DNA of 32,000 nt from an uncultured Alphaproteobacteria bacterium (GTDB lineage: Bacteria > Pseudomonadota > Alphaproteobacteria > Rhizobiales > Xanthobacteraceae), in NCBI GenBank assembly GCA_963777755.1, contig CAVZSC010000005.1, positions 30,933 through 62,932 of the forward strand, written 5' to 3'. Positions within the stretch are counted from its first letter, which is position 1; every line of letters begins with the position of its first letter. The notes beneath the pieces were generated by a model. It was not told the DNA's origin. It did no database searches and saw only the letters and a program-made list of their open reading frames with translations. This document shows positions 171-20,342 of the stretch, in pieces. The position numbers and the translations under genes are program-made.

Positions 171-1013
171 ATGCGAGCCTCTGCGGCCGCGAACGGCTGG
201 GCCGCACACGGCTGGGCCACGGATGGCCTGGGCGCGCTCAAACGCCAGATCGCCGCGATCGAAGGCGCGCAGGCGACCTGCGAGGATACACGCGCGCTGC
301 CGTTGGGTATCACCGGCGTCGACGCGGCGCTGGGCGGCGGCCTCAAACTCGGCGCAACCCATGAGATCGCGCCGGCCAGCCCGCTCCATCGCGGCGCCAC
401 CTTCGCCTTCGCGCTGGGGCTAGCCTGCCAGGCGTGCAAACATGGCCACGCCGACACGGTGGTGTGGATCGAGACGCCGTTCGCGGCCGCCGAGACCGGC
501 AGGCCTTATGGCATCGGCCTCGAGAGCTTTGGGCTTGCGCTCCCACATGTGCTCGTCGTGCGCGTGTCGCAGCCGATCGATGCCCTATGGGCGATGGAGG
601 AGGCGCTTCTCTGCCGCGGCGTCGCGGCGGTCATCGCCGAGGTGACGGAAGAGCTCGCGCTCACCGCGTCACGTCGCCTCTCGCTCGCCGTTCGCCACGG
701 CGGCGGATTGGGCCTTCTGGTGCGCCATCGCGTCTCGCCGCTGCCGCACGCCGTGCTCACGCGATGGCAGGTCGCAGCCGCCCGCAGCCCCCCCGACGCC
801 CATGGCGGCCTCGGAGCTGCGGCCTTCGACCTCTCGCTCACCAAGAACCGCCATGGCCCATGCGGCCGCTGGACCATCCTGTGGGACCATCATGAACGCC
901 TCTTCGTCGACCCGGCGCTATCTGTCGATGTGGCTCAGGTGGCTTTCGACCGACCGGATCGCCCGCGCTTGCACGCTGGGCGCTCACGCGCCGGGCGCCT
1001 ACGCGCCGGATGA
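171..1013 (+). CDS. imuA: ImuA, RecA-fold accessory protein of the SOS mutagenesis cassette
   Basis: Same frame as ORF-track 144..1013. I prefer ATG 171 because GGAGA (161-165) lies 5 nt upstream. ATG 144 has no SD and sits inside the LexA box. It is the first gene of a cassette directly followed by imuB and dnaE2. The 3' end overlaps imuB by 122 nt. Confidence 0.8.
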   Translation: MRASAAANGWAAHGWATDGLGALKRQIAAIEGAQATCEDTRALPLGITGVDAALGGGLKLGATHEIAPASPLHRGATFAFALGLACQACKHGHADTVVWIETPFAAAETGRPYGIGLESFGLALPHVLVVRVSQPIDALWAMEEALLCRGVAAVIAEVTEELALTASRRLSLAVRHGGGLGLLVRHRVSPLPHAVLTRWQVAAARSPPDAHGGLGAAAFDLSLTKNRHGPCGRWTILWDHHERLFVDPALSVDVAQVAFDRPDRPRLHAGRSRAGRLRAG

Positions 1014-2484: not shown

Positions 2485-5400
2485 CCTGCGCCGAGCTCGC
2501 CGTCACCACCAATTTCTCCTTCCTGCGCGGCGCCTCGCATCCGGAGGAGCTGGTGACCCGCGCCAAGGCGCTCGGGCTTTCCGGGCTCGGCATCACCGAC
2601 CGCAACACGGTGGCGGGCGTCGTGCGCGCCCATGTGGCGGCCAAGGAAGCAGGCCTGAGGCTCGCGGTCGGCGCGCGCCTCGTCTTCGCCGACGGCACGC
2701 CCGATATCCTCGCCTATCCGCGGGATCGCGTCGCCTGGGGGCGGCTCACGCGTCTGCTCTCGCTCGGCAAGCTGCGCACCGACAAGGGCGAATGCATTCT
2801 TCGCATCGACGACCTGCTGGCGCACGTCGAGGGGCTCAACCTCGTGGTGATGCCGGGAGTTTTGGTCACCTCTTCCCGCTTGCCAGGGGAGAGGGTGACG
2901 TCCCTCCTTCGCACCATGCGTACCATGGCGCCGCGCGCGGTGTGGCTTGCGGCCAGCATGCTCTATCGCGGCGACGATGCGCGCCGCCTGGCCCGGCTCA
3001 AGGCGATTGCCGCGGAAGCGAGCGTGCCGCTGATCGCCGTCGGGGATGTGCTCTATCATGTGCCCGAGCGCCGGCCGCTGCAGGACGTCGTCACCTGCAT
3101 CCGCGAGCACGTGACGATCGATCAGGCCGGCCGGCGGCTCGAAGCCAATGCCGAGCGCCACCTGAAAGCGCCGGAGGAGATGGCTCGGCTGTTCCGCGCC
3201 GCGCCGAACGCGCTCGCCGAGACCGAGCGGCTGATCGAGCGTTGCGGCTTCTCGCTCGATGCGCTCAAGACAACCGAATATCCCGACGAGACGCGTCAGG
3301 GCTATGCGACGCCGCAGGACGCGCTCGTCGCCTTCGCGGAGGAGGGCGTCGCTAAGCGCTATCCGGGCGAAATTCCTGCCAAGGTCCGCCATGCCCTGAA
3401 CGAAGAGCTCAGACTGATCGGCGAGCTCGGCTACGCGCCGTTCTTCCTTACCGTGCATGAGATCGTCCGCTTCGCCCGTTCCCAAGGCATCCTGTGCCAG
3501 GGGCGCGGCTCGGCAGCGAACTCGGTCATCTGCTATTGCCTCGGCATCACCGAGGTCGATCCCGATCGCATCGACCTGTTGTTCGAGCGCTTCGTCTCGG
3601 CCGAGCGGCGCGAGCCGCCCGACATCGACGTCGATTTCGAGCATGAGCGGCGTGAAGAGGTGATCCAGCACATCTATCGGCAATATGGCCGCGAGCGCGC
3701 CGGCCTCGCCGCCACCGTGATCTGCTACCGCGGCCGCAGCGCCATCCGCGAGGTCGGCAAGGCGTTCGGCCTCTCCGGCGACACGATCGGCGCGCTCGCC
3801 GGCACCCTGTGGGGCTGGTCGATGCAGGGCGTCACGGAAAACGAGGCGCAGCGGGTCGGGCTCGACGCCACCGATCCGCGGCTCGCCAAGGCGATCGCGC
3901 TCGCCCGCGAGCTGAGCGGCTTCCCGCGCCATCTCTCCCAGCATGTCGGCGGCTTCGTCATCACCCGCTCGCGCCTCGACGAGGTGGTGCCGATCGAGAA
4001 CGCCGCCATGGAGGAGCGCACCGTCATCGAGTGGGACAAGGACGACCTCAACGAAGTGGGCCTGCTCAAGGTCGACGTGCTCGGGCTTGGCATGCTGTCC
4101 TGCCTGCGCCGGTCGTTCGATCTCTTGCGTGCGCACTATGGCGAGACGCGCACACTGTCCGTGCAGGACGAGGATCCGGCGGTCTACGACATGATCAAGC
4201 GCGCCGACACGATCGGCGTGTTCCAGATCGAGAGCCGCGCGCAGATGTCGATGCTGCCGCGGCTGCGCCCTGACAAATTCTACGATCTCGTCATCGAGGT
4301 CGCCATCGTGCGGCCGGGACCGATCCAGGGCGACATGGTGCATCCCTATCTGCGCCGCCGGCAGGGCCTCGAGCCGGTCAACTACGAATCCGCCGAACTG
4401 GAGGCGGTGCTGAAGAAGACGCTCGGCGTGCCGCTGTTCCAGGAGCAGGCGATGCGCATCGCCATCGTGGCGGCAGGCTTCACGCCCGCCGAGGCGGACA
4501 AGCTGCGGCGCGCCATGGCGACCTTCAAGCGGGTCGGCACCATCGCCTACTTTCGCGACAAGCTGGTCGACGGCATGGTGGCGAAAGGCTACCGGCGCGA
4601 GTTTGCCGAGCGCTGCTTCAGCCAGATCGAGGGCTTTGGCGAGTACGGCTTCCCCGAGAGCCATGCGGCGAGCTTCGCCAACCTGGTCTACGCCTCGGCC
4701 TGGATCAAATGCCGCTACCCGGATGTGTTCGCCGCCGCCCTCCTCAACAGCCAGCCCATGGGCTTCTACGCGCCGGCGCAGATCGTGCGCGACGCCCAGG
4801 ACCATGGGGTCGAGATCCGTCCGGTGGACGTGAATTTCTCCTGCTGGGACTGCACGCTGGAGGATTGCTCCATCCCTCCCCCGCAGGGGGAGGGTGGCCG
4901 TGCGAAGCACGGCCGGGTGGGGCTCCACCCTCGCCACGCCGAAATGCAGGGCGACATCCGCACCACCCGCGCGGTGCGGCTCGGCTTCCGCCAGATCAGC
5001 GGCGCATCCGAGGAGCCGTGGAAGGTGATCGAGCAGGTGCGTAGGGCTTCTGTCGTCGAGCAGGCAGGAAGTGAACCGCCTCGCGCGCGTCTTGCGTTCC
5101 CTCCCCCCTTGTGGGGGAGGGACAGGGAGGGGGGTGCGCCGCAAACTCTGAGTCCAGAAGTAGCCCCCCTCCCCAACCCTCCCCCACAAGGGGGGAGGGA
5201 GCAGGCAGAGCAAGTCGCACCGCCTGCGCCAAACCTCACGCCCCCCTCCCCGCGCAGAGAGACAAAATTCGACTCCATCCGCGATTTCTGGCTGCGCACG
5301 CGGCTGCCGCCGTCGGCGCTGGAGCGCCTCGCTGCCGCCGATGCGTTCCGCTCGCTCGGGCTCGACCGTCGCGCCGCCTTATGGGCGGTGCGCGCGCTAC

Positions 5401-6065
5401 GCCGCACCGGCGACAAGGACGACCTGCCGCTGTTCGCTGCGGTTGCGATGCCGGAGCTCGAGCCCGATGCGGCCCTGCCGCCGATGCCGCTCGGCGAGCA
5501 TGTGATCGCGGACTATCGCCACCTGCATCTCTCGCTGAAAGCGCATCCGGTCTCCTTCCTGCGCGGCGAGCTCGATCGCCGCGGCATCGTGCGCCACGAG
5601 TGCCTCGGGACGCTCTCGTCCGGCCGCGTCGTCACGATCGCCGGCCTGGTGCTGGTGCGCCAGCGGCCCGGCAGCGCCCAGGGGGTGATCTTCATGACCC
5701 TCGAGGACGAGACCGGCATCGCCAACACCATCGTGTGGCCAAAGGTGTTCGAGATCTTCCGTCCCGTAGTGCTCGGCGCGCGGCTCATCAGCGTCACCGG
5801 CAAGCTGCAGAACGAGCAGGGCGTGATCCACGTGGTGGCGCACCGGCTCGACGACCTCTCGCACCTGCTGCGCCGCCTCGCCGACACGACGTTCACCGAG
5901 GCGCTCGCCCATGTGGACGAAGTCCGCCGCCCGATCGACGACCGTACCCCGCGCCAGGGCGCCCGCAAGCTCGCCCGGCTGATCAAGGAGGAGCCGGGCC
6001 TGCTCGGCGAATTCGCCCCCGCCTCGCCCGCCGCCGTCATGCCCAAGGGGCGGAATTTTCATTGA
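2481..6065 (+). CDS. dnaE2: DnaE2, error-prone DNA polymerase III alpha-subunit paralogue (1194 aa)
   Basis: Starts [24 protein letters not shown] (PHP domain). Pol III alpha core motifs are present: [25 protein letters not shown]. There is a C-terminal OB-fold region and the protein ends GRNFH. ATG 2481 is coupled to the imuB stop. The ORF-track start 2334 is an upstream extension. Confidence 0.95.
2865..2899. repeat. Degenerate GC-rich palindromic (REP-like) unit inside dnaE2
   Basis: gtcacctcttccc gcttgcca ggggagagggtgac: arms pair over about 12 of 13 positions with one bulge. The sequence style (ccctc.../...gaggg) matches the units at 4874-4930 and 5097-5201. Encodes ...[13 protein letters not shown]... 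Confidence 0.4.
4874..4930. repeat. Triple-hairpin GC-rich palindromic unit, in frame within dnaE2
   Basis: Three consecutive perfect stems read directly. ccctccccc-gca-gggggaggg (4874-4894); ggccgtgc-gaa-gcacggcc (4896-4914); gggtgg-ggct-ccaccc (4915-4930). As delimited, 57 nt = 19 codons, encoding [19 protein letters not shown]. Confidence 0.75.
5097..5201. repeat. MITE-like composite: two 39-nt inverted arms, each itself a hairpin, around a 27-nt core, in frame within dnaE2
   Basis: Arm 5097-5135 (ttccctccccccttgtgggggagggacagggaggggggt) matches the reverse complement of 5163-5201 at 34 of 39 positions by hand alignment. Each arm holds a ccctccccc/gggggaggg hairpin (5099-5121 and 5177-5199). 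As delimited, 105 nt = 35 codons. Encodes [12 protein letters not shown]...[10 protein letters not shown]. Confidence 0.75.
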
Positions 6066-6156: not shown

Positions 6157-6882
6157 ATGAACACCCGCAAATATGCCGCCGAGGCCATTGGCACGTTCTG
6201 GCTGACGTTCGGAGGCTGCGGCAGCGCCGTGATTGCGTCGGGATTTCCACAGGTCGGCATCGGACTGCTCGGCGTCTCGCTGGCGTTCGGACTGACCGTC
6301 GTCACCATGGCCTACGCGATCGGCCACATCTCCGGATGCCATCTCAACCCGGCCGTTACCGTCGGGCTGGCAGCCGGCGGCCGCTTTCCGACCAACGAGA
6401 TCCTGCCCTACATCATCTCGCAGGTGATCGGGGCCATCGTCGGTGCCGCGGTGCTCTACCTGATTGCCCGTGGCAAAGCCGACTTCAGCCTCGCCAAGGG
6501 GTTCGCCGCCAACGGCTTCGGCTCCCACTCGCCGGGCGGATACAACATGGGCGCCGCTCTCCTCGCTGAGTTCGTGCTGACGATGATGTTCCTGTTCATC
6601 ATCATGGGCTCCACCCACGGCAAGGCGCCGGCCGGCTTCGCGCCGCTCGCCATCGGCCTCGGCCTCACCCTCATTCATCTCATCAGCATCCCGGTCACCA
6701 ACACCTCGGTGAACCCGGCGCGCAGCACCGGTCCCGCGCTGTTCGTCGGCGGCTGGGCGCTGCAGCAATTGTGGCTGTTCTGGGTGGCGCCGCTGATCGG
6801 CGGAGCAATCGGCGGCTTTGCCTACCGCTGGCTCAGCGAGGAACCCTCCGAACCGGTCACCGGAACGGCGAAGCCGGTGTGA
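6157..6882 (+). CDS. aqpZ: Aquaporin Z (MIP family water channel)
   Basis: 241 aa. N-terminus [21 protein letters not shown] and two NPA boxes ([13 protein letters not shown]). SD GAGGGAGA at 6143-6150. Confidence 0.95.
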
Positions 6883-7943: not shown

Positions 7944-8870
7944 ATGGCCGACCGCGCCGAGCTATCCGCCCTCGCAGACCCCGACGACCTGGGCCCCTAT
8001 CTCGCCCGGCTGGGCGAGCGCGTGCGCATCCTGCGCACCCGGCGCGGCATGTCGCGAAAGGCGCTGGCGAAGCATTCGGACGTGTCCGAGCGCTACCTGG
8101 CGCAGCTCGAGGGGGGCACCGGCAACTGCTCGGTCGTGCTGCTGCGCCGCATCGCCCGGGCGCTGAGCGTGCCGCTGGCCGAGCTCGTCGATGATCGTCC
8201 CGATCGCTCGGTCGAGAGCCTCATGGTGATGCAGCTGATCGACCGCCTGGCGCCGGACGAAGTCGCCGAGGCAAGCGAGTTCCTGCGCCGGCGCTTCGGC
8301 GGGACGACGGCCGCGATGCGGCGAGGCCGCATCGCCCTGATCGGCCTGCGCGGCGGCGGCAAATCGACGCTCGGCCGGCTGCTGGCGGCCGAGCTCGAAG
8401 CGCCCTTCATCGAGCTCGACCGCGAGGTCGAGCGCGAGAGCGGCATGGCGCTCGGCGAATTGTTCGAGATGTTGGGCCAGCAGACGTTTCGCCGGATGGA
8501 GCGGGCGGCGCTGGAGAAAGTGCTGGCGCGCCATCCTGGTTTCGTGCTGGCGACCGGTGGCGGGCTGGTCACCGAGCCGGGCACCTTCGAGCTCCTGCTC
8601 GCCTCCTGCTTCACCGTCTGGGTGCGCGCGGCGCCCGCGGATCACATGAGCCGCGTCCTGCAGCAGGGGGATCTGCGCCCGATATCCGGCCATGCGCGGG
8701 CGATGGACGATCTCGTCGCGATTCTCAAAAGCCGCGAGCCGCTTTACGCCAAGGCCGACGTGACGCTCGAGACCACGGGGCACACCCCGCCCCAGGCCTT
8801 GCGCAAGCTGGTCCGGCTGGTGCGACCGACGGCAGCCGCCGAGGATCGTCAGCCGGTCGATGCGCGTTGA
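7944..8870 (+). CDS. boxR: BzdR/BoxR-type transcriptional regulator (XRE HTH fused to a shikimate-kinase-like domain)
   Basis: 308 aa. HTH region RGMSRKALAKHSDVSERYLAQLEGGTGNCSVVLLRRIARAL, plus a C-terminal P-loop GLRGGGKST with an SK-like fold. This fusion is the hallmark of the benzoyl-CoA-sensing repressors BzdR/BoxR. It lies directly upstream of boxC-boxB. The ORF-track ORF 6771..8870 is an upstream extension antisense to the transglutaminase-like gene. Confidence 0.8.
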   Translation: MADRAELSALADPDDLGPYLARLGERVRILRTRRGMSRKALAKHSDVSERYLAQLEGGTGNCSVVLLRRIARALSVPLAELVDDRPDRSVESLMVMQLIDRLAPDEVAEASEFLRRRFGGTTAAMRRGRIALIGLRGGGKSTLGRLLAAELEAPFIELDREVERESGMALGELFEMLGQQTFRRMERAALEKVLARHPGFVLATGGGLVTEPGTFELLLASCFTVWVRAAPADHMSRVLQQGDLRPISGHARAMDDLVAILKSREPLYAKADVTLETTGHTPPQALRKLVRLVRPTAAAEDRQPVDAR

Positions 8871-8914
8871 AGCAGGATGGCTGCGCCGCCAAATTGGTCC
8901 TGGCCATCCCAGGC

Positions 8915-8934
8915 ATGATGCATTATAGTTCAGG
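8915..8934. promoter_or_regulatory. Candidate BoxR operator / promoter of the boxC operon
   Basis: atgATGCATTATAgTtCAGG. The 10-mer ATGCATTATA (8918-8927) is identical to 7911-7920. A TATAGT -10-like hexamer lies at 8924-8929, 17 nt before the boxC ATG. Confidence 0.55.
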
Positions 8935-8946
8935 TCCGGAGCACAG

Positions 8947-10629
8947 ATGAGCCCAATCGATTTTCAGACCGATCCGAGCCGCTATCGTCACTGGCGCATC
9001 GAGATCGACGGCGAGGTCGCGTCCCTGATCATGGACGTGGACCCGTCGGGGAGCCTGTTCGAGGGGGTCGAGCTCAAGCTCAACTCCTACGACCTCGGCG
9101 TCGACATCGAGCTCAACGACGCGGTGCAGCGGCTGCGCTTCGAGCATCCGGACGTGCGCGCGGTCGTCATCAAGTCGGGCAAGGACAACGTGTTCTGCGC
9201 CGGCGCCAACATCCGCATGCTGGGCAAGGCGACGCACGGGCACAAGGTGAATTTCTGCAAGTTCACCAACGAGACCCGGCTGGCGATCGAGGATGCCTGT
9301 GCGAATTCCGGACAGGCCTACCTCGCCGCCGTGCGCGGATCCTGCGCCGGCGGGGGCTACGAGCTCGCGCTCGCTGCCGACCACATCATGCTGGTGGACG
9401 ACCGCCGCTCCACCGTGTCGCTGCCGGAGACGCCCTTGCTCGGCGTGCTGCCCGGCACCGGGGGCTTGAGCCGCGTCACCGACAAGCGGAAGGTGCGCCG
9501 CGACCGTGCCGACGTGTTCTGCGCGACCGAAGAGGGCCTGCGCGGCACCAAGGCGGTGGAGTGGCGCCTGGTCGACGAAGTGGTGCCCAATTCCAAATGG
9601 GCCGAGACGGTCGCGACACGCGCGCGCGAGCTCGCGGCGCGCTCCGACCGGCCGCGCGGCGCCAAAGGCATCAAGCTCACCGCGCTCGCACGCCGGCCGA
9701 ATGGCGACGGCGTCGTCTATTCCCACGTCGCCCTCGAGATCAACCGGCCGCGCGGCATCGCCACCCTGACCGCACGCGCGCCGGCGAACGCCGCGCCCGT
9801 TTCGGTCACCGCAGCGCATGAGCAGGGCGCCGCGTTTTGGCCGCTCGCACTCGCACGCGAGCTGGAGGATGCCATCCTCCACCTGCGCGCCAATGAGCCG
9901 GACGTCGGCCTCGTCGTGTTCCGCACGGAGGGCGAGGCCAAGGGCGTGCTCGATCACGACGCGCTGCTCGGCGAGAACGACTGGCTGATGCGCGAGGTGC
10001 GGCACTATCTCAAGCGCGTGCTCAAGCGCATCGACGTCACCTCGCGCAGCTTCATCGCGCTGGTCGAGCCCGGCACGTGCTTCGCCGGCACCCTTGCCGA
10101 GCTCGTGTTCGCCGCCGACCGCTCGCTCATGCTCATCGACACGCGCGAGGGCGACAACAAGCCGCCCGCCGCCATCACGCTGGGCGCGGCGAACTTTGGC
10201 TTCTATCCCATGGGCAACGGGCTTACCCGGCTGGAGACGCGCTTCCTCGACGATACCGACACGCTGGCGCGGCTGCGCGACAAGACCGGCACGCGGCTCG
10301 AGGCGGAGGCCGCCGACGAGCTCGGCCTCGTCACCGGCATCGTGGAATCCTACGACTGGGAGGACGAGCTGCGCGTCATGCTGGAGGAGCGCGCGAGCTT
10401 CTCGCCCGATGCGCTCACCGGCATGGAGGCGAACCTGCGCTTCGCCGGACCGGAAACCATGGAAACCAAGATCTTCGGCCGCCTGACCGCGTGGCAGAAC
10501 TGGATCTTCCAGCGCCCCAATGCGGTCGGCGAGCAGGGCGCGCTCAAGCTTTACGGCAGCGGCGTGCAGCCGACGTTCAACCGGGAAAGAATTCGACTCG
10601 TCCCGCACGTGGTGCGGCGCAAACCATAA
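8947..10629 (+). CDS. boxC: BoxC, 2,3-epoxybenzoyl-CoA dihydrolase (benzoyl-CoA-dihydrodiol lyase); large crotonase-family protein
   Basis: 560 aa with crotonase-type motifs (VVIKSGKDNVFCAGANIRML). The size is typical of BoxC, twice that of a normal enoyl-CoA hydratase. It is adjacent to boxB and a BoxR-type regulator. The assignment rests on size, family and context. Confidence 0.8.
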   Translation: MSPIDFQTDPSRYRHWRIEIDGEVASLIMDVDPSGSLFEGVELKLNSYDLGVDIELNDAVQRLRFEHPDVRAVVIKSGKDNVFCAGANIRMLGKATHGHKVNFCKFTNETRLAIEDACANSGQAYLAAVRGSCAGGGYELALAADHIMLVDDRRSTVSLPETPLLGVLPGTGGLSRVTDKRKVRRDRADVFCATEEGLRGTKAVEWRLVDEVVPNSKWAETVATRARELAARSDRPRGAKGIKLTALARRPNGDGVVYSHVALEINRPRGIATLTARAPANAAPVSVTAAHEQGAAFWPLALARELEDAILHLRANEPDVGLVVFRTEGEAKGVLDHDALLGENDWLMREVRHYLKRVLKRIDVTSRSFIALVEPGTCFAGTLAELVFAADRSLMLIDTREGDNKPPAAITLGAANFGFYPMGNGLTRLETRFLDDTDTLARLRDKTGTRLEAEAADELGLVTGIVESYDWEDELRVMLEERASFSPDALTGMEANLRFAGPETMETKIFGRLTAWQNWIFQRPNAVGEQGALKLYGSGVQPTFNRERIRLVPHVVRRKP

Positions 10630-10648
10630 GAACCAAGAGGCAGGTGCC

Positions 10649-12091
<1,443 letters not shown>

Positions 12092-12126
12092 TAGAAGGGG
12101 CGGCAGCTTTCCGGAGCAAGCGCCCC

Positions 12127-12669
12127 ATGTCGCAACGCAGCCGCTCGGACAATTCCGCCGACGAGGTGATCCTGGTCGATGCCGACGACCGGCTGGTCGG
12201 GACCATGGGGAAGCTCGAGGCGCACCGGCGGGGGCTACGCCACCGCGCCCTCTCGGTGATCGTGCGCGACCGGCACAACCGGCTGATGCTGCAGCGGCGC
12301 GCACTCGCCAAGTATCACTCGGGCGGGCTGTGGACCAACACCTGCTGCAGCCATCCGCGGCCAGGTGAAGATACGGCCGATGCCGCCGCGCGCCGGCTCG
12401 CCGAGGAGATGGGATTCGGCTGCCCGCTCACGTTGCTGTTCTCCACCCACTATCGCGCCCAGGTGTCGAACGACCTGATCGAGGACGAGCTGGTGCACGT
12501 GTTCGGCGGCCGCTTCGACGGCGCGCCCGATCCCGACCCGGCCGAGGTCGCCGAGTGGTGCTGGAAGGCCGCCGACGAGCTTGCACACGACATCGACCAG
12601 CACCCCGAGCTCTACACGGTCTGGTTCCGCAAATACCGGCAGCAATTCTGGCAGGCGATGGTGGGGTAG
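12127..12669 (+). CDS. idi: Isopentenyl-diphosphate delta-isomerase, type 1 (Nudix fold)
   Basis: LRHRALSVIVRDRHNRLMLQRRALAKYHSGGLWTNTCCSHP aligns with E. coli Idi LHLAFSSWLFN...[25 protein letters not shown] (catalytic Cys). The downstream IEDELVHVF corresponds to the catalytic Glu region. The start is uncertain: ATG 12127, or GTG 12088 overlapping the boxB stop. Confidence 0.85.
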   Translation: MSQRSRSDNSADEVILVDADDRLVGTMGKLEAHRRGLRHRALSVIVRDRHNRLMLQRRALAKYHSGGLWTNTCCSHPRPGEDTADAAARRLAEEMGFGCPLTLLFSTHYRAQVSNDLIEDELVHVFGGRFDGAPDPDPAEVAEWCWKAADELAHDIDQHPELYTVWFRKYRQQFWQAMVG

Positions 12670-12740
12670 TCGGCGGGTTGGCCGGCGCGCAGCGACACGA
12701 TAGTCTGCAACCGAACAGCCTTATGGGAGGTCGAGACGCC

Positions 12741-14321
12741 ATGCAGGAAGCCGTGCGCAAGGAAACAATCCGGCCCGCCGCGCAGGACACGCAGGATCTG
12801 CGCGGCACGCTCGCCTGGCTCAAGGCCGGGGGCGACCTGATCGAGACCGACAAGCCGGTCGATCCCGACCTCGAGGTCACCGGCCTGCAGAAGCATCTCG
12901 ACGGCGGCTGCCCGGTACTGTTCAACAACGTCAAGGGCAAGCCCAACCATCGCGTCGTCACCAACCTGTTCGGCGACATCAACGTCATCAACAGGATGTT
13001 CGGCTGGAAGGACGACGTGGAGCGCACCCGCAAGCTCGCCTACGCGATCTCGCACCCGCTGAAGCCCGTCGAGATCCCGCAAGGGCAGGCGCCGTGCCAG
13101 GAGGTGGTGATCGAGAAGCCGGACGACGTGAACCGCTATATGGTGCCGATCCGGCACACCGCCGTCGAGCCGGAGCTCACCGTCGGGTCCGGCATCCGCT
13201 GCGTCACCGGCCGCCATTTCGACGGCGGGTCCGACCTCGGCTACAACCGCATGAATTTCCGCTGGGGCAATGTCGGCACGTTCCAGATCTCACCCGGCTC
13301 GCACATGTGGCAGGTGGTCAACAAGTACTACAAGGCCGACGAGCCGGTACCGATCACCATGTGCTTCGGCGTGCCGCCCGCCTGCACGCTGCTCGCCGGC
13401 GCCGCCTTCGGCTACGCCATCATGCCGCAGGGCTGCGACGAGATCGGCATCGCCGGCGCCGTGCAGGGTGCGCCGATCCGCCTGGTCAAGGCGCGCACGG
13501 TCGATGCCATGGCGCTGGCCGATGCCGAAGTGGTGCTCGAAGGCTACGTCAATCCGCGCGACCGCCGCTTCGAGACCAAGGAGGCGGAGGACGCCGGCAT
13601 CCAGGGCCGCTTCCATTTCCATCCCGAGTGGGCCGGCTATATGGGCAAGGCCTACAAGGCGCCGACCTTCCACGTCACCGCCGTGACCATGCGGCGCCCG
13701 GAGACGAAGCCGATCATCTTCGCGCTCGGCGTTCACACGCTCGACGACCACAACATCGACACCACGGTGCGCGAGGCGACCATCTACGAGCTGTGCAACC
13801 GGCTGCAGCCGGGCATCATCCAGGACGTCGTCGTGCCCTATTGCATGACCGATTGGGGCGGCTGCATCATCCAGGTGAAGAAGCGCCACCAGATCGACGA
13901 AGGCTGGCAGCGCAATTTCCTCTCCGCCATCCTGTCGTGCTCGCAAGGGATGCGGCTCGCCATCGCGGTGAGCGAGGACACCGACCCCTATTCGATGGAC
14001 GACGTGATGTGGTGCCTCACCACCCGCGTCAACCCGCGCACCGATATCCTCAACCCGATCCCCGGCGGGCGCGGACAGACGTTCATGCCGGCCGAGCGGA
14101 TGACCGCGGGCGACAAGCAATGGACCGCCTCGAACACCCAGTTCGAAGGCGGCATGGGCATCGATGCAACCGTGCCGTTCGGCTACGAGAGCGATTTCAT
14201 GCGCCCGGTCTATCCGGTCGACCGGGTGAAGCCGGAGGATTTCTTCTCCAAGAAGGACATCGAGAACGCCCGCTCGCGCATGGTCGGCTGGGTGCATTCG
14301 CTCTCGCGCACCGGGCGGTGA
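12741..14321 (+). CDS. UbiD-family (prFMN-dependent) decarboxylase, substrate unknown
   Basis: 526 aa from ATG 12741, with SD GGGAGG at 12725-12730. UbiD-like N-terminus DLRGTLAWLKAGGDLIETDKPVDPDLEVTGL, a DLGYNRM segment and a C-terminal region like UbiD/AroY-type enzymes. The acidic EGPFG.HTGYY-type region is divergent (GRFHFHPEWAGYMG), which suggests it is not the canonical ubiquinone UbiD. Confidence 0.85.
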   Translation: MQEAVRKETIRPAAQDTQDLRGTLAWLKAGGDLIETDKPVDPDLEVTGLQKHLDGGCPVLFNNVKGKPNHRVVTNLFGDINVINRMFGWKDDVERTRKLAYAISHPLKPVEIPQGQAPCQEVVIEKPDDVNRYMVPIRHTAVEPELTVGSGIRCVTGRHFDGGSDLGYNRMNFRWGNVGTFQISPGSHMWQVVNKYYKADEPVPITMCFGVPPACTLLAGAAFGYAIMPQGCDEIGIAGAVQGAPIRLVKARTVDAMALADAEVVLEGYVNPRDRRFETKEAEDAGIQGRFHFHPEWAGYMGKAYKAPTFHVTAVTMRRPETKPIIFALGVHTLDDHNIDTTVREATIYELCNRLQPGIIQDVVVPYCMTDWGGCIIQVKKRHQIDEGWQRNFLSAILSCSQGMRLAIAVSEDTDPYSMDDVMWCLTTRVNPRTDILNPIPGGRGQTFMPAERMTAGDKQWTASNTQFEGGMGIDATVPFGYESDFMRPVYPVDRVKPEDFFSKKDIENARSRMVGWVHSLSRTGR

Positions 14322-14347
14322 ACTGATCGCCGTTCCAACCATTCGTC

Positions 14348-14453
14348 ATGGCCGGCCTTGTGCCGGCCATCTCGATAATGAGGGCACGATCGTGCCATTC
14401 GAATTGGGATCGCCGGGACAACCCTCGCCGCTTAAGGCGGCTCGCCCGGCGAT
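14348..14453. repeat. Three stacked REP-like palindromes in the convergent gap; probable bidirectional terminator
   Basis: atggccggc-cttgt-gccggccat (14348-14370). ggcacgatcgtgcc, a perfect 14-bp palindrome (14383-14396). atcgccggg...cccggcgat (14409-14453) enclosing gccgc-ttaag-gcggc. The first unit is the ..ggccggc..gccggccatgacga type that I recognise as a recurrent intergenic element of Bradyrhizobium/Rhodopseudomonas genomes. Confidence 0.6.
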
Positions 14454-14461
14454 GACGAGCC

Positions 14462-16003
14462 TCACGCACCCCTCTCCCTGCTCCACAGCCCGACCAGCGC
14501 CTTGCGGTCGAGCTTGCCGCGCTCGGTCTTGGGCAGTGACGCGCTCAGCACGATCGCCTTCGGCGCCTTGAATGCCGGCAGCACGCTGTTGCAGTAGCGC
14601 AAGAGCTCGGCAACGTCGACGCGCGAACCTGACCGCGCCACCACGTAGCTCACCACCTCTTCGCCGTAGATCGAGTCCGGCACGCCGACGGTCGCCACTT
14701 CGATCAGCTCCGGCCGCTGCATCAGCAGGCTGTCGATCTCGACCGGCGAGATGTTGACGCCGCCGCGGATGATGATCTCCTTCTCGCGCCCGGTCAGATG
14801 CAGGTATCCGTCCGCATCGAGGAACCCGAGGTCGCCGGTGCGGATGCGCCTGCGCGCGCTCACCCGGATGGTGCCGTCGTCGGCGAGGTAGCGATAGGCA
14901 TGATCGCCGAGGCCGCCGACCTCGACCGCGCCGATCTCGCCCGCGCCGAGCCGCCGTCCCTCCGCATCGACGATCGCGAGATCATGGTAGGGCAGCGGCC
15001 TGCCCACCGTCCCGAGCCGCCGCGCCTCCCCCGGGATCGCCGCGATCCAGCCGGTCTCGCTGCTGCCGTAGCCCTGCGCGACCGGAATGCCGAAGTGCTC
15101 CTCGAACCGGCGCCACTCCTCGGGCAGGAGCGGCGCCGAGCTCGACGTGATGAAGCGCAGCGTCGGCACCTTGTCGCCCAGCGCATCGACCTCGCTGTTG
15201 AGCAGCATGTTGATGGTGGTCGGATTGCCGGCCGCGATGGTCGCGCCGAACATGCGAATATGGTCGAAGAACCGCCTGGCCGAGAACCGGCGCGCGACCA
15301 CCACCGAGGCGCCGGCGCAGATCGGCGCGAGCGCGCTCAACAGCTGCGCGGAGGCCCAGTTGAACGAGCGGAAGTCGTAGATCCGGTCATCCTCGCCGAT
15401 GCCGAACCCTTCCGCCGTCGGCGCGATGTTCGACAGGTGCTCGCGGAACGTCAGCACCACGCCCTTCGGGCGAGCGCTGGTGCCCGAGGTGAACAGGATG
15501 ACCGCGTCGTGCCCCTCGTCAGAGCCATGAGCCAGGACGTCGCTGGGTGTACAGCGCGCCACCTCGCTGAAAAAACCATCGTCTCCCTCCCACCTGCCCA
15601 GCGGGAGATGCGGCGCGCCGGACGCCGCCACCAGGTCGTCGAGATCGAGCCCCGTCTCGGACAGCACCAGGCGCGGCCGCAAGTCCGGCAGAATGCGATC
15701 GAGATGGTTGCGGTTCATCTCCACGTGGATGGTGCAAATGGTCGCCCCATAGGCCATCACGCCGAGATAGCAGGCGAGGTGCTCGATGCCGTTGTTGGCG
15801 AGCAGCGCCACCCGGTCGTTGGCGCCGAGCCCGCGCGCGTGCAGGACCGCGGCGATCTGCCCGGTGACGCGGTGCAACTGACGGTACGTGATGGCGCGGC
15901 CGTCGTCGGCCGAGACGATGCAGGCCTTGTCGGGATGCCGCGCGGCCGCCCGCGCAATCCAATGACGCAGCAGGAGCGGCCCGGCTTGTTCGTTTACGCT
16001 CAT
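14462..16003 (-). CDS. AMP-forming acyl/aryl-CoA ligase (ANL superfamily), substrate unknown
   Basis: Core motifs LFTSGTSARPKGV, GYGSSETG, TGDLG, GREKEIIIRGGVNISP and LPKTERGKLDRKAL. ATG 16003 preferred; GTG 16027 is possible. Confidence 0.88.
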   Translation of the reverse strand: MSVNEQAGPLLLRHWIARAAARHPDKACIVSADDGRAITYRQLHRVTGQIAAVLHARGLGANDRVALLANNGIEHLACYLGVMAYGATICTIHVEMNRNHLDRILPDLRPRLVLSETGLDLDDLVAASGAPHLPLGRWEGDDGFFSEVARCTPSDVLAHGSDEGHDAVILFTSGTSARPKGVVLTFREHLSNIAPTAEGFGIGEDDRIYDFRSFNWASAQLLSALAPICAGASVVVARRFSARRFFDHIRMFGATIAAGNPTTINMLLNSEVDALGDKVPTLRFITSSSAPLLPEEWRRFEEHFGIPVAQGYGSSETGWIAAIPGEARRLGTVGRPLPYHDLAIVDAEGRRLGAGEIGAVEVGGLGDHAYRYLADDGTIRVSARRRIRTGDLGFLDADGYLHLTGREKEIIIRGGVNISPVEIDSLLMQRPELIEVATVGVPDSIYGEEVVSYVVARSGSRVDVAELLRYCNSVLPAFKAPKAIVLSASLPKTERGKLDRKALVGLWSRERGA

Positions 16004-16173
16004 TGCACCGTCAACCCGTCTGCCCACTATCGGCGGCGCCGCGGACAGTCTAATTTAGCGCCCGCTCCGGCGCCAGGAGCCGAGCAGAATCGAGCGGAGC
16101 ACAACGGTGGCGCGGTCGGCTGGGGAGGTCTAGAGCTCATGGTGCAGCACGTGCGAGCGGGTGCAGGGTGGAC

Positions 16174-16734
16174 ATGACGCTGCCGCTCATCGTCGGAATC
16201 AGCGGAGCATCGGGGGCGATCTACGGAATCCGGCTCCTCGAAGTCCTGAAAAGCATCCGCGTCCCTGCCCACCTGATCGTCTCCAAGTCGGCGATCCAGA
16301 CGCTCAAGGAGGAAGCCGGCAGCTCGATCGAGGCAGTGCGCAAGCTCGCCGCCGACACCTATTCCAACAGCGATATCGGCGCCGCCGTGTCGAGCGGATC
16401 GTTCAAGACGCACGGCATGCTCATCGCCCCGTGCTCGATCCGCACGCTGTCCGACATTGCCTATGGCGGAACCGACAACCTCTTGAGCCGCGCCGCCGAC
16501 GTCCAGCTCAAGGAGCGCCGACGCGTGGTGCTGATGGTGCGGGAGACTCCGCTGCATGCCGGCCACCTGCGCAGCATGATGGCGGCGACCGAGAACGGCG
16601 CCATCGTCATGCCGCCCGTACCGGCGTTTTATCACAACCCGAAGACGATCGACGACATCGTCAACCAGACGGTCGGCCGGGCACTCGACCTGTTCGACAT
16701 CGACGCCAAGATCGTCAAGCGCTGGCGCTCGTGA
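16174..16734 (+). CDS. ubiX: UbiX, flavin prenyltransferase (prFMN synthase)
   Basis: LIVGISGASGAIYG, LIAPCSIRTLSDIAYG, VLMVRETPLH and PPVPAFYH are canonical UbiX/Pad1 motifs. Start is ATG 16174 or GTG 16168. Confidence 0.92.
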   Translation: MTLPLIVGISGASGAIYGIRLLEVLKSIRVPAHLIVSKSAIQTLKEEAGSSIEAVRKLAADTYSNSDIGAAVSSGSFKTHGMLIAPCSIRTLSDIAYGGTDNLLSRAADVQLKERRRVVLMVRETPLHAGHLRSMMAATENGAIVMPPVPAFYHNPKTIDDIVNQTVGRALDLFDIDAKIVKRWRS

Positions 16735-16736
16735 CG

Positions 16737-18167
16737 ATGCGGATCGGCAAGGCGCATTTCATCGGCATCGCCGGTGCCGGCATGAGCGCGACGGCGAAGC
16801 TGCTCAAGGACCAGGGCGCCACCATCACGGGTTCCGACGAAGGCATCTATCCACCGGTGTCGGATTTCCTGCGCGAGCACGGCATCGCATGCCGCACGCC
16901 CTACGCAGCCGAAAACATTCCCGCCGACGCCGACCTCGTCGTCATCGGCAAGAACGCCAGGCTGGTCGCCGAGACCAACGCCGAAGTCGCCTCCGCCTAT
17001 GCGAGCGGCAAGACCATCATGTCGTTTCCCGAGGTGCTCGGCGCCTTGTCGGAAGGCAAGGAGACGGTCGTCGTCGCCGGCGCCTACGGCAAATCCACCA
17101 GCGCCGCCCTGCTGGCCCACTGCCTCGAAGGCGCGCCGGCCGGCGCAGCCCGCGCGCGCGACCCGTCCTGGTTCATCGGCGCCATCCCGCTGACGCCGTC
17201 GGCCAACGCGCGACTGGGAGCCGGCCCGCTGTTCGTTCTCGAGGGCGACGAGTATCCGTCATCGAACACCGACCCCCGTTCGAAGTTCCTGCACTATCAT
17301 CCGCGGCATCTCCTGATCACGCCGCTCGCCCACGATCACCTCAACGTCTTTCCCACGCCAGACGACTACGTCGCGCCGTTCCGCCAGCTGCTGACGCTGC
17401 CGCCGGCGGACGGCACGATCCTCGCATGCGCGGAAGGAAAGCTGAGCCCGGCGCTGCTCGCCCACGCCTCGCGGCCCGTCGTCACCTACGGGGTTCACGC
17501 TGGCGAGTTCTGCGCCGCCGACATCGCCTGGGGTGAGACGACGCGCTTCACCCTTATGCGGCACGGCTCGCGCATCGCCCGGATGGAGACGAGCCAGCTC
17601 GGCGAGCACAACATCCAGAACATCGTCGGGGTCGCGGCCTTCCTCCTCTCCCTCGGCCTCCTCACGCCCGATGAGATCGCGGCCGCGAGCGCGAGCTTTC
17701 GCGGCATCCGGCGGCGGCTCGACCGCAAGTCGGAGAAAACCACCATTCCGATCTTCGAGGGGTTCGGCTCGTCCTACGACAAGGCGCGCAGCGCGATCGC
17801 GGCGATGAAGCGGCATTTTCCCGATCGGCGCCTGATCGCGGTGTTCGAGCCGCACACGTTCAGCTGGCGCAATCGCGACGCGCTCGCCTGGTACGACGAC
17901 GTGTTCGAGGGCGCCGCCAAGGTGTTCATTTACGAGCCTGCCGACCAGGGGGCCGCGACACACCAGCAGATCTCGCACCAGGAAATCTTGGATCGCGTGC
18001 TCAAATCAGGCTGCGACGCCGAAGCCATTTCCGATGCCGACCAGGCGCTTACGACGATCCATGACATATTGCTGCCGAACGATGCCGTCCTGCTGCTGAC
18101 ATCTGGGAATCTCGGGGGGCTGATCGACCGGATTCCGGTCGCTGCCGAGCAGAAGTTTCCGCGTTGA
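16737..18167 (+). CDS. mpl: Mpl, UDP-N-acetylmuramate:L-Ala-gamma-D-Glu-meso-DAP ligase (Mur ligase family, murein peptide recycling)
   Basis: HFIGIAGAGMSATAKLL..GSDEGIYPPVSDFL, P-loop AGAYGKSTS and FVLEGDEYPSSNTDPRSKFLHYHPRHLLITPLAHDH align with E. coli Mpl ([50 protein letters not shown]). Start is ATG 16737 or GTG 16731, overlapping the ubiX stop. ORF-track 16161..18167 is an upstream extension across ubiX. Confidence 0.85.
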   Translation: MRIGKAHFIGIAGAGMSATAKLLKDQGATITGSDEGIYPPVSDFLREHGIACRTPYAAENIPADADLVVIGKNARLVAETNAEVASAYASGKTIMSFPEVLGALSEGKETVVVAGAYGKSTSAALLAHCLEGAPAGAARARDPSWFIGAIPLTPSANARLGAGPLFVLEGDEYPSSNTDPRSKFLHYHPRHLLITPLAHDHLNVFPTPDDYVAPFRQLLTLPPADGTILACAEGKLSPALLAHASRPVVTYGVHAGEFCAADIAWGETTRFTLMRHGSRIARMETSQLGEHNIQNIVGVAAFLLSLGLLTPDEIAAASASFRGIRRRLDRKSEKTTIPIFEGFGSSYDKARSAIAAMKRHFPDRRLIAVFEPHTFSWRNRDALAWYDDVFEGAAKVFIYEPADQGAATHQQISHQEILDRVLKSGCDAEAISDADQALTTIHDILLPNDAVLLLTSGNLGGLIDRIPVAAEQKFPR

Positions 18168-18324
18168 GATCGGGCGAATATTCGTCAAGTTCGATCTTTC
18201 GCATCAAACCATCAGCAACCACCGGCTCCAGGCCCAATTGGTCGGAAGCCCGTCCACAACCCGGTGCAGCAGGCTTTCTTAACCCTTGGGAGATCAGGAT
18301 CGCTTGGCGCACAGGGAGGACGTC

Positions 18325-19434
18325 ATGCGATCGCAATCGCTCATAAGACACTGCGCCTGCACCACAGTCACCTTGATCACGATATCGGCGGCGAGCCTCG
18401 CGGCAAGAGCCGACAGTCTCCCGCCCTACATGCAACCAATCGCCGGACGCACGACTTCCACCGCGGCCGACACGGCCACCAAGAACGTCCTGGCGCTGAA
18501 TACCGGCATGTTCGAGCTGTATGGCGACGCGGCCAGAATCTTCCAGAAGAACATTCTCAGCCGGCATCCCGTCATCCTCGGCCTGTTCTCCGGGGCCGGC
18601 GGCCGATTCATACTCTATCGGCCTGACACGCCTCCACTGGAGGCGCCATCGGTCCCGATCGTCTACCAATTGCTGAAATCCGTCGGCCACAGCACGATGG
18701 CTCTGGCTCAGGTGGTAGGTCCGTACCTGGACAATCCTGCCGATCGGTCCTGGCGCGGACCTATGGCTGCCTATCGCAGCCGGATGAATTCCGCCCTGGA
18801 GGAGCTGGCTGCCACTCCGATGGACCCGGCCTGGCGCGAGAACAACCAGATCATTCTGCAGAACAACATCACGTTCATGGATGACTGCCTGGCGGAAGGG
18901 GCTGTCTCCTTCACCGCCCTGGAGACGTTCTCCAAGAAGCAGGCCCCCTATCTCGCGCGGAACGTCGCATGGGCGGCTGAGACTCAGGTCGCCCACTGGA
19001 TGGCTGTGCTGGCGGACTGGAAGAAGTCGCTCGGCGGCGACTGGGACAAGACCTATGCGGCCAGCAATACGATCTATGTGGCGCGGCAAAACAACGTGTT
19101 GTTCAGCGTCCTTGCACAGTTTTTCGGGCCCGACGCGATCAACAGCCGCCTGATGCTGATCGAGACGATCTCGTTCACGACGACGCCGGCGGACATGTTG
19201 AACTCGCTGACGCGCATCATCGCCGACCGCTCCGTGGGCGCGCTGTTCTTCGGCAACTATCACCTGATGGACTATGAATTGATGGGCGGCGACGCGCGCA
19301 CCGCAATCGCCGCGGAAACTGCAAAGCGCGGAATGACCGCGTTCTTGCCTCCCCTCGTACCCTTCGGATCGAAGCAATGGCCGACCCTGGTCACGCCCGG
19401 ACCGGGACCTGCCTCCATCGCCGACCTCAAATAG
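18325..19434 (+). CDS. Exported protein of unknown function
   Basis: ATG 18325 with SD AGGGAGGA (18313-18320). Sec-type signal peptide MRSQSLIRHCACTTVTLITISAASLAARA/DS. Amino-acid composition is varied, and third-position GC bias supports this strand over the Arg-rich antisense ORF 18049..19377. I recognise no family. Confidence 0.65.
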   Translation: MRSQSLIRHCACTTVTLITISAASLAARADSLPPYMQPIAGRTTSTAADTATKNVLALNTGMFELYGDAARIFQKNILSRHPVILGLFSGAGGRFILYRPDTPPLEAPSVPIVYQLLKSVGHSTMALAQVVGPYLDNPADRSWRGPMAAYRSRMNSALEELAATPMDPAWRENNQIILQNNITFMDDCLAEGAVSFTALETFSKKQAPYLARNVAWAAETQVAHWMAVLADWKKSLGGDWDKTYAASNTIYVARQNNVLFSVLAQFFGPDAINSRLMLIETISFTTTPADMLNSLTRIIADRSVGALFFGNYHLMDYELMGGDARTAIAAETAKRGMTAFLPPLVPFGSKQWPTLVTPGPGPASIADLK

Positions 19435-19508: not shown

Positions 19509-20342
19509 ATGAATCTCAACACAATCACCCAGCTGAAACGCCCGGTGTCTGCGGACGAGATCACGCAATGGCGTGACGGATACGCATGGCTTGCCGGCGG
19601 AACCTGGCTGTTCTCGGAGCCGCAGTTCGCCACCGATACGCTGATCGACCTCGACCAGCTCCAGTGGTTGTCACTGGAGCCATCTCCCGATGGGCTCGAT
19701 ATCGCTGCGACGTGCCGCATTGCGGAGCTGTACCGGTTCGCCGGGCCAGCCGAATGGCGCGCGACGCCGCTGCTGCGCGAGTGTTGCAACGCGCTGCTGG
19801 CCTCGTTCAAGATCTGGAACGCCGCCACCGTCGGCGGAAACATCTGCATGTCGTTGCCGGCAGGCGCGATGATCTCGCTGACGGTGGCGCTCGAGGCGAC
19901 CTACACGTTATGGCCACGCGACGCGGCGCCGCGCGAAGTCCGGGCGCTCGATTTCGTCACCGGGAACCATGCGAATATCCTGCGGCGCGGCGAATTGCTC
20001 CGCGGCATCCACCTGCCCGCCACGGCGCTGTCGAAGCGGTATGCTTTTCGTCAGGCTTCGCTCACCCACCTGGGGCGCTCGGCCGCCCTGGTGATCGGCA
20101 CGCAGGATGCCCCCTCGGAGGAACTCCTCATCACGATCACCGCGGCAACGCCACGACCGATCCAGCTTCGCTTCGCGTCCACGCCGTCCGCGATGGAGCT
20201 GCGTCGCACACTCGACGAGAGCATTCCCGCCGATGGATATTTCGACGATGTCCATGGCTCGGCAGCCTACAAGCGACACGTAACCTATTACTTCTCCGAA
20301 CAAATCCGCGCCGAACTGGCGCAACCGCGAGTAGCCACATGA
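19509..20342 (+). CDS. FAD-binding subunit of a xanthine-dehydrogenase-family molybdenum hydroxylase (CoxM/XdhB-like)
   Basis: 277 aa with LAGGTWL (AGGT FAD motif) and a size and layout typical of medium subunits. Stop TGA 20340-20342 overlaps the next ATG (ATGA). Confidence 0.85.
   Translation: MNLNTITQLKRPVSADEITQWRDGYAWLAGGTWLFSEPQFATDTLIDLDQLQWLSLEPSPDGLDIAATCRIAELYRFAGPAEWRATPLLRECCNALLASFKIWNAATVGGNICMSLPAGAMISLTVALEATYTLWPRDAAPREVRALDFVTGNHANILRRGELLRGIHLPATALSKRYAFRQASLTHLGRSAALVIGTQDAPSEELLITITAATPRPIQLRFASTPSAMELRRTLDESIPADGYFDDVHGSAAYKRHVTYYFSEQIRAELAQPRVAT

Follow-up and report, generated by a model that had tools for sequence, protein, structure and literature searches.

Why should a gene of isoprenoid metabolism stand within a chain of genes for the breakdown of aromatic compounds? 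This question is raised by a stretch of 32,000 nucleotides from an uncultured alphaproteobacterium of the Xanthobacteraceae, which we refer to as the window. Here idi, the gene for a type-1 isopentenyl-diphosphate (IPP) isomerase, lies between boxB (10649-12091) and a gene of the UbiD family (12741-14321), as the original prediction had stated. We identified the latter by sequence comparison as a gene for a phthaloyl-CoA decarboxylase (PCD), an enzyme that depends on prenylated flavin mononucleotide (prFMN). The genome's only copy of ubiX, which encodes the flavin prenyltransferase, was found 1.85 kb downstream of pcd. Neither this ubiX, nor the identity of the UbiD-family gene, nor the CoA ligase gene next to it had been part of the original prediction. 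The best explanation, to which we assign a probability of roughly 0.55, is that idi supplies the prenyl unit of the prFMN cofactor of PCD. The gene is best explained as having been recruited into a phthalate catabolic cluster of the ligase type. The three genes on which the argument turns are the following.

12127-12669, plus strand: idi, predicted type-1 isopentenyl-diphosphate isomerase (180 aa; the ATG at 12127 is the likelier start)
12741-14321, plus strand: pcd, predicted orthologue of phthaloyl-CoA decarboxylase (UbiD family, prFMN-dependent; UbiD_N, UbiD and UbiD_C domains)
16168-16734, plus strand: ubiX, predicted flavin prenyltransferase (TIGR00421, 239 bits, cut-off 108.9; the single match in the genome)

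The host genome (G000; 10.28 Mb in 45 contigs, 95% complete) is that of a soil Xanthobacteraceae-like bacterium. Near-identical DNA was found only in soil and rhizosphere metagenomes, and the nearest relatives are metagenome-assembled genomes (MAGs) of Xanthobacteraceae and other Hyphomicrobiales.

The idi open reading frame (ORF) spans 12088-12669 on the plus strand, and a GTG at 12088, which overlaps the stop codon of boxB, is an alternative start. The protein exceeded the cut-offs of two NCBIfam equivalog models (NF002995, 157 bits against 127; TIGR02150, 113.4 bits against 105.8), contained the Pfam NUDIX domain and carried the motif WTNTCCSHP. The motif N[TA]CCSHP was present in all 63 Idi proteins of the family. 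The phmmer score against the Escherichia coli protein was modest (74 bits). Alignment to E. coli 1i9a/1nfs showed that the equivalents of H25, H32, C67, H69, E87, Y104, E114, E116 and W161 are conserved; the catalytic Cys67 and Glu116 and the metal ligands His25, His32, His69, Glu114 and Glu87 (E. coli numbering) are all kept. The canonical Nudix box GX5EX7REUXEEXGU gave no strict or relaxed match in the window Idi and none in the 63 family proteins, and the likeness to it in the window Idi is limited to the C-terminal half (RRLAEEMGF). On these comparisons, the predicted product of 12127-12669 is a bona fide type-1 isomerase of IPP and dimethylallyl diphosphate (DMAPP). The original prediction of a clear type-1 Idi with a TNTCCSHP context is correct, because both cut-offs were passed, the E. 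coli residues are kept and no Nudix hydrolase box is present. It was also right that idi is not beside isoprenoid genes: the window ORFs that we scanned included no gene of carotenoid, bacteriochlorophyll or isoprenoid metabolism. The genome contains one idi, the window copy, and one ispH.

The idi gene itself is therefore ordinary. Window Idi has the fold, length and catalytic and metal residues of E. coli Idi (PDB 1NFS, 1I9A, 1HZT). What differs is the context, an apparent aromatic catabolic operon in which idi lies beside the gene of a prFMN-dependent decarboxylase and near ubiX.

The UbiD-family protein encoded 3' of idi matched the structures 8pmk and 8oz5 ('Phthaloyl-CoA decarboxylase') in the PDB with 914 bits (E 1.8e-274), and residues 17-526 aligned to 8pmk_A without a gap (510 residues). 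The next-best solved family, protocatechuate decarboxylase, scored 166 bits. Judged by this similarity, the gene is a phthaloyl-CoA decarboxylase orthologue and not a generic paralogue. In the window, pcd is clustered with a candidate gene for the formation of the CoA thioester, that of the adjoining, convergent AMP-forming ligase; in other PCD lineages two CoA_transf_3 genes take its place. PCD reportedly reaches high levels in the cell so as to capture labile phthaloyl-CoA (review PMC13040137). Such a high level would entail a high, stoichiometric demand for prFMN. In the window genome we counted 22 UbiD-family matches. No paralogue reached the cut-off of the canonical ubiquinone UbiD model NF008175, a result that is uninformative because only E. 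coli did so among the control genomes.

The window UbiX matched Pfam Flavoprotein (PF02441) with 148 bits and was most similar to Aspergillus niger PAD1 (PDB 6qlg, 176 bits). The supply of the dimethylallyl donor to UbiX, be it the monophosphate (DMAP) or DMAPP, is still unsettled (PMC6541611). The original prediction had UbiX use the monophosphate. This holds for some UbiX proteins and does not stand as a general rule: the donor is DMAPP for the A. niger and E. coli K12 enzymes and DMAP for that of Pseudomonas aeruginosa (PaUbiX), and one enzyme takes both (PMC6541611). The residue at position 181 of PaUbiX tracks the donor, being Phe in PaUbiX, Gln203 in the A. niger enzyme and His164 in O157 UbiX. 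The exchange F181Q fails to convert PaUbiX, so that this residue alone does not switch specificity (PMC6541611). Gln167 of the window UbiX aligned with Q203 of A. niger PAD1 and H164 of O157 UbiX, and all 27 UbiX homologues linked to idi or pcd had His at this position. The Gln167 of the window protein is compatible with direct use of DMAPP; we regard it as consistent with the proposed role of idi and do not count it as support. As a discriminator for idi, the donor residue was dropped: 10 genomes without idi also carry His or Gln, and there was no correlation with idi.

The variable donor leads to another possible function. An Idi-like Nudix protein could provide the monophosphate: in place of the classical reaction between IPP and DMAPP, it might cleave DMAPP to DMAP as a hydrolase or convert isopentenyl phosphate to DMAP as an isomerase. 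The fold is indeed that of Nudix proteins, several bacterial UbiX proteins including the one from the Azoarcus phthalate cluster work with DMAP, and no other candidate for the conversion of DMAPP to DMAP is visible in the cluster. Against this function speak the scores above both isomerase cut-offs, the intact catalytic and metal residues of the isomerase, the lack of the canonical hydrolase box in the window Idi and its 63 family relatives, and the Gln or His of UbiX at the position where the beta-phosphate of DMAPP is accommodated. We consider a monophosphate-forming role improbable.

The original prediction had asked for a survey of co-occurrence, and within the family of the window its outcome was positive. 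We collected 80 loci with close relatives of PCD (83-91% identity), queried them with the window proteins and recorded genes within 10 kb of pcd. Of these loci, 23 had idi nearby and 21 had ubiX, with the two together in 18; wherever idi alone was seen (five loci), a contig end cut the locus. Full flanks of 10 kb were available for 55 loci: 16 had idi and ubiX, none had idi alone, one had ubiX alone and 38 had neither.

The genes were linked in several ways. The order boxB-idi-pcd is kept in the window and in both genomes of the same genus, and the order idi-pcd-ligase occurs in two other loci (L073, L090). In L072 and L081, a ubiX-idi pair is divergent from pcd-ligase. Locus L027, whose Idi belongs to the second clade described below, has an operon of a PaaK-like ligase gene and idi 5' of pcd, and a UbiD-paralogue-ubiX pair 3' of pcd; its idi (3069-3623, minus strand) overlaps by 4 nt the end of the PaaK-like CoA ligase gene (3620-5110, minus strand), whose product scored 600 bits with TIGR02155, just below the cut-off of 646. 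In L124, idi and ubiX form an adjacent pair without pcd. Seven linked Idi relatives were scored with both isomerase models, and all passed the cut-offs.

A tree of 64 Idi proteins, with support given by the Shimodaira-Hasegawa-like approximate likelihood ratio test (SH-aLRT), contained a second clade of 18 members. These proteins are ~45% identical to the window Idi, and the branch that sets them apart from its clade has a length of 1.36 substitutions per site, with 100% SH-aLRT support. All 18 genes lie 2-7 kb from pcd. For 13 of them ubiX is in the same locus, and for the other five the contig ends before that side. The deep split means that two Idi lineages, only ~45% identical, are each tied to PCD and ubiX.

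On the PCD tree, the idi linkage changed state about five times. This gave three independent pairs when only well-supported branches were used and five when all branches were used. The presence of ubiX was concordant with that of idi in essentially all independent pairs and was never opposite; the pairs are too few for significance (sign test, p=0.25).

These data bear on the most serious competitor of the supply role, namely that idi is a passenger: an accessory isoprenoid gene which travels with a catabolic island and whose link to PCD and ubiX is historical, by shared ancestry or co-transfer. Such a history would agree with the small number of independent events after phylogenetic correction (three to five), with the many PCD clusters that lack idi, and with the single lineage to which 13 of the 16 idi-plus-ubiX loci belong. 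It would also agree with genera g16, g31, g43 and g57, where idi and pcd are far apart or on different contigs, and with the failure to see the linkage outside the family of the window. A passenger is harder to reconcile with two Idi clades of ~45% identity that are each linked to PCD and ubiX, with at least four gene orders that keep the genes together (tight idi-pcd and ubiX-idi pairs included), with the joint gain or loss of idi and ubiX at PCD loci, and with the idi-ubiX pair of L124 that lacks pcd. On balance we think a passenger unlikely, while holding it to be the strongest of the alternatives.

We extended the comparison to whole genomes, using 401 genomes of the family of the window and, as outside control, 390 genomes across the rest of the class. 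UbiD-family proteins were detected in the family survey at E <= 1e-25, genomes with seven or more UbiD matches were called UbiD-rich, and neighbours of idi were recorded within 8 kb. In the family, idi was present in 90 genomes and PCD in 57. The idi gene was found in 42/57 PCD-positive and 48/344 PCD-negative genomes (odds ratio 17), and in 57/85 UbiD-rich genomes compared with 33/316 others.

Forty idi loci were not beside pcd. Six of these had ubiX within 8 kb and 13 had a UbiD paralogue, 17 loci combined. For ubiX, 6/40 compares with a rough expectation of below 1% (an estimate that takes a 16-kb span and a gene with one to a few copies in each genome), which again speaks against a mere passenger. 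The sampled neighbours of 14 remaining idi loci were a mixed set, and the families that recurred among them included none for isoprenoids or carotenoids. For this Pfam tally, neighbour ORFs were chosen with a gene caller based on GC content at third codon positions; it is unreliable in high-GC DNA and served solely for this purpose. In the rest of the class, idi occurred in only 25/390 sampled genomes, and none of 24 idi loci fetched from other alphaproteobacterial families had ubiX or ubiD within 8 kb.

We conclude that the linkage of idi to PCD, ubiX and UbiD paralogues is real but specific to the UbiD-rich family of the window. Within this family the association spans several genera, at least four gene orders and two divergent Idi clades. 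The objection that the adjacency might be unique to this strain fails because the linkage recurs across several genera, in which idi again stands beside PCD, ubiX or UbiD paralogue genes.

The survey also allowed us to assess whether idi serves the general balancing of isoprenoid precursors, for quinone tails, hopanoids or tRNA, and is near ubiX by way of quinone and isoprenoid metabolism. In bacteria with the methylerythritol phosphate (MEP) pathway, idi is dispensable and patchy, as it is here (90/401 genomes), and this would suit a balancing function. So would the searchable literature, in which papers on coenzyme Q are the only ones to name idi, ubiX and ubiD side by side. However, no polyprenyl synthase, squalene or phytoene synthase or ubiA-type gene was among the recurrent families at the 14 idi loci, and none of these turned up in the window. 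The partner gene encodes a catabolic decarboxylase, and idi loci of other alphaproteobacteria lack the linkage to ubiX and ubiD. Moreover, a UbiD match was not found in 149/401 family genomes. This suggests that UbiD is probably accessory in the family and not a universal quinone step; UbiD and UbiX together look like accessory, probably catabolic genes there, not parts of a universal ubiquinone step. We give isoprenoid balancing as little credence as the monophosphate-forming role.

Several findings count against a supply of prFMN by idi. Nearby idi is missing from 38/55 full-flank PCD loci and from the PCD clusters of Binatia, a 'Deltaproteobacteria' MAG, Zixibacteria and Burkholderiales, and no idi was seen in 15/57 PCD-positive genomes of the family. 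In those four groups and another lineage, PCD occurs with CoA transferases and without idi, and ubiX is present or absent. These clusters indicate that idi is an optional addition and no requirement. The few changes of state on the PCD tree and the origin of most linked loci in one lineage reduce the weight of the counts, and the co-occurrence of idi and PCD at genome level is confounded by phylogeny and lifestyle. The Gln or His of UbiX does not discriminate, being found also in genomes without idi. Finally, DMAP was the compound used to activate the UbiX-like protein encoded in the phthalate cluster of Azoarcus (preprint 10.1101/2022.07.29.502009). If the window UbiX needed DMAP, the step from DMAPP to DMAP would be unaccounted for.

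The proposal that idi feeds the prFMN pathway thus stands in so far as the linkage recurs in the family, and is weakened by its confinement to that family, by the many PCD clusters without idi and by the low number of independent events. With only three to five such events, this predicted role is unproven. The terms 'self-sufficient' and 'dedicated', which the original prediction had used for the cofactor supply, are overstated: the only ubiX of the genome must serve all 22 UbiD-family matches.

Two PCD loci are described here in their own right. A complete genome of the family (G100) contains five ubiX copies, one of them directly beside pcd (C1:12288-14873). No idi was found there with the window protein as query, which shows that pcd-ubiX can exist without idi. 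In another lineage, the PCD cluster of L214 has the order UbiD-UbiX-two CoA transferases-PCD; a gene for a CTP-dependent riboflavin kinase (PF01982; 13160-13579, minus strand) directly adjoins the cluster, and one for a PNPOx-like FMN-binding protein (3281-3745, minus strand) is in the vicinity. These flavin genes may be recruited suppliers of the FMN half of prFMN, in parallel to idi.

The neighbourhood of idi was annotated from the regulator upstream to the Mur ligase gene downstream of ubiX. Apart from the three genes given above, it comprises the following features.

7944-8870, plus strand: BoxR/BzdR-type regulator (NF006015, 386 bits; Pfam HTH_31 and SKI; in-frame ATG at 7944)
8947-10629, plus strand: boxC, 2,3-epoxybenzoyl-CoA dihydrolase (TIGR03222, 911 bits, cut-off 712)
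10649-12091, plus strand: boxB, benzoyl-CoA 2,3-epoxidase subunit B (TIGR03225, 871 bits, cut-off 499)
14343-14421, no strand: stem-loops in the convergent gap 3' of pcd (inverted-repeat scan)
14462-16027, minus strand: AMP-forming CoA ligase, candidate phthalate-CoA ligase (AMP-binding and AMP-binding_C domains)
16737-18167, plus strand: mpl/murC-type Mur ligase (Mur_ligase domains; TIGR01082 and TIGR01081 matches under the cut-offs)

The gene order is boxR, boxC-boxB-idi-pcd, the convergent gene for a dicarboxylate-type CoA ligase, ubiX and the mpl-type ligase gene. The regulator has the build of the BoxR/BzdR type, a helix-turn-helix plus a shikimate-kinase-like domain. The gap between idi and pcd measures 71 nt. 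The sole promoter-like site in 8700-18400 is at 8901-8929, just 5' of boxC. No terminator-like site was found from boxC to the pcd stop codon, and no hairpin in the boxB-idi or idi-pcd gaps. Short palindromes inside coding regions aside, the stem-loops at 14343-14421 are the only inverted repeats in 11900-14500, and they are likely to mark the end of a boxC-boxB-idi-pcd transcription unit. The simplest reading of these signals is that boxC, boxB, idi and pcd would form one operon under BoxR.

Soil metatranscriptome contigs matched a part of idi (12336-12667, 99% identity), and others ran across the boundary of boxB and idi (12008-12152) or across the space between idi and pcd (12642-12831). 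These short contigs give weak support to transcription through idi into pcd, weak because contigs of this kind are no proof that RNA was the source or that one transcript covers the genes. They may stem from DNA carry-over or from relatives, which counts against the supply role as well. Other metatranscriptome contigs, from rhizosphere and soil, stacked on a conserved part of boxB (10993-11385) with a summed word depth of up to 54. Their many variant letters indicate that several related organisms express or carry boxB.

The position of idi directly 3' of boxB in an apparent operon, together with the need of the Box route for a downstream double-bond shift, could mean that Idi isomerises a double bond in an intermediate of the Box or phthalate pathway and not in an isoprenoid. 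The unbroken diphosphate- and metal-binding residues argue against this. Box genes were found in only two of the 80 PCD loci, both without idi. Activity on a pathway intermediate is very improbable, because outside the genus of the window the idi-pcd-ubiX linkage holds without box genes.

The nearest solved relatives of the convergent CoA ligase, which may start at ATG 16003 or GTG 16027, are oxalate- and malonate-CoA ligases and not benzoate-CoA ligases. This fits the activation of a dicarboxylate such as phthalate. An orthologue was found within 10 kb of pcd in 51/80 related loci. When the Box pathway was tested by its components BoxA, BoxB and BoxC, the latter two passed the cut-offs and BoxA did not: a search of the 95%-complete assembly gave no canonical boxA, the best match reaching 76 bits (cut-off 459). 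Either another reductase would then provide BoxB with electrons, or boxA is in a portion of the genome that was not assembled.

The mpl/murC-type gene abuts ubiX: ubiX ends with a stop codon at 16732-16734, and the ATG of mpl follows at 16737 (ORF 16731-18167). As mpl was beside ubiX in none of the 80 related PCD loci, the pairing may be specific to the genus of the window. An ORF antisense to ubiX (16027-16635, minus strand) was judged spurious. Further downstream, 7 kb 3' of idi, the window encodes a molybdenum enzyme of the xanthine dehydrogenase family (19586-23092, plus strand). The same enzyme family directly adjoins idi in L072 (6062-8443, plus strand) and accounted for 3/60 sampled idi neighbours elsewhere; its function near idi could be 4-hydroxybenzoyl-CoA-reductase-like or that of an aldehyde oxidoreductase. 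At the other end of the window, 802-6065 (plus strand) holds an imuB-like gene (IMS and DUF6504) followed by a dnaE2-type gene for the DNA polymerase III alpha subunit, a pair that is an error-prone repair cassette. An aquaporin/MIP gene (6157-6882) comes after the dnaE2-type gene.

How would the isomerase contribute to phthalate breakdown? Phthalate would be activated by the CoA ligase to phthaloyl-CoA, which PCD would decarboxylate to benzoyl-CoA, and the latter would then be opened by BoxB and BoxC. Each PCD subunit would need one prFMN, made by UbiX from reduced FMN and dimethylallyl (di)phosphate. IspH of the MEP pathway yields mostly IPP, and the induction of an isomerase together with PCD would therefore be a sensible means of increasing DMAPP. 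Idi, whose gene appears to share a transcript with boxCB and pcd, would shift IPP towards DMAPP upon induction of the pathway. More DMAPP would provide the single UbiX with prenyl donor and promote the loading of abundant PCD and probably of other UbiD paralogues. To the gene identities, the arrangement and the recurrent idi-ubiX-PCD linkage that we observed, this scheme adds co-transcription, the flux argument and DMAPP as limiting factor, all of which we infer.

Parts of this system have been described in other bacteria. Denitrifiers are known to have clusters of PCD and UbiX genes with a CoA transferase, and sulfate reducers to have them with a ligase (PMC13040137). The pht clusters of Thauera chlorobenzoica, Aromatoleum aromaticum and Azoarcus sp. 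PA01 encode PCD, a UbiX-like protein, a succinyl-CoA:phthalate CoA transferase and a transporter (PMC13040137). With these betaproteobacterial denitrifiers the window shares an orthologous PCD (914 bits to the Thauera structure), a nearby ubiX and benzoyl-CoA as the product. It differs in having an AMP-forming ligase instead of the class III CoA transferase pair of other PCD loci, in being fused to the aerobic boxCB genes and in carrying idi, a gene absent from the account of phthalate clusters in a 2026 review (PMC13040137). In Desulfosarcina cetonica and Syntrophorhabdus aromaticivorans, an ATP-dependent CoA ligase and a UbiD-type decarboxylase lead to benzoyl-CoA, as proposed here (PMC13040137). 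These two, which we liken to the window by description, are strict anaerobes with a reductive benzoyl-CoA pathway, whereas the window stems from a soil alphaproteobacterium whose Box route depends on O2. An aerobic hybrid pathway for phthalate has been published, for which a search of the accessible literature brought up irrelevant papers only.

A tie between isoprenoid precursors and UbiD enzymes exists in the modified mevalonate pathway of archaea, which employs a UbiD-type anhydromevalonate-phosphate decarboxylase plus UbiX. To our knowledge, it is the only established natural one that joins isoprenoid precursors with UbiD/UbiX. There the UbiD enzyme makes the isoprenoid precursor; the logic of the window would be reversed, with an isoprenoid enzyme feeding the UbiD cofactor. 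Among the papers that could be searched, none joins IPP isomerase with PCD, UbiX or prFMN in a natural cluster, and only coenzyme-Q engineering studies were returned. The cluster is a variant of the known phthalate system of PCD and UbiX, and its extension by idi is a testable hypothesis.

UbiD-family (de)carboxylases are sought-after biocatalysts, and poor loading with prFMN is a frequent obstacle in other hosts. The proposed module suggests adding idi when UbiX and UbiD enzymes are expressed. Phthalate is a breakdown product of plasticisers, and the locus documents a widespread predicted phthalate route of soil alphaproteobacteria, in which a ligase replaces the CoA transferase and which leads straight into the aerobic Box pathway. 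More tentatively, and at slightly less than even odds, IPP isomerase may be a recurrent, previously unrecognised third component of prFMN biogenesis: DMAPP would limit loading in UbiD-rich soil bacteria, and the isomerase would have been joined repeatedly to ubiX and to highly expressed UbiD enzymes. A natural, recurrent module of idi, ubiX and a decarboxylase gene would mark the availability of DMAPP as a real constraint in vivo.

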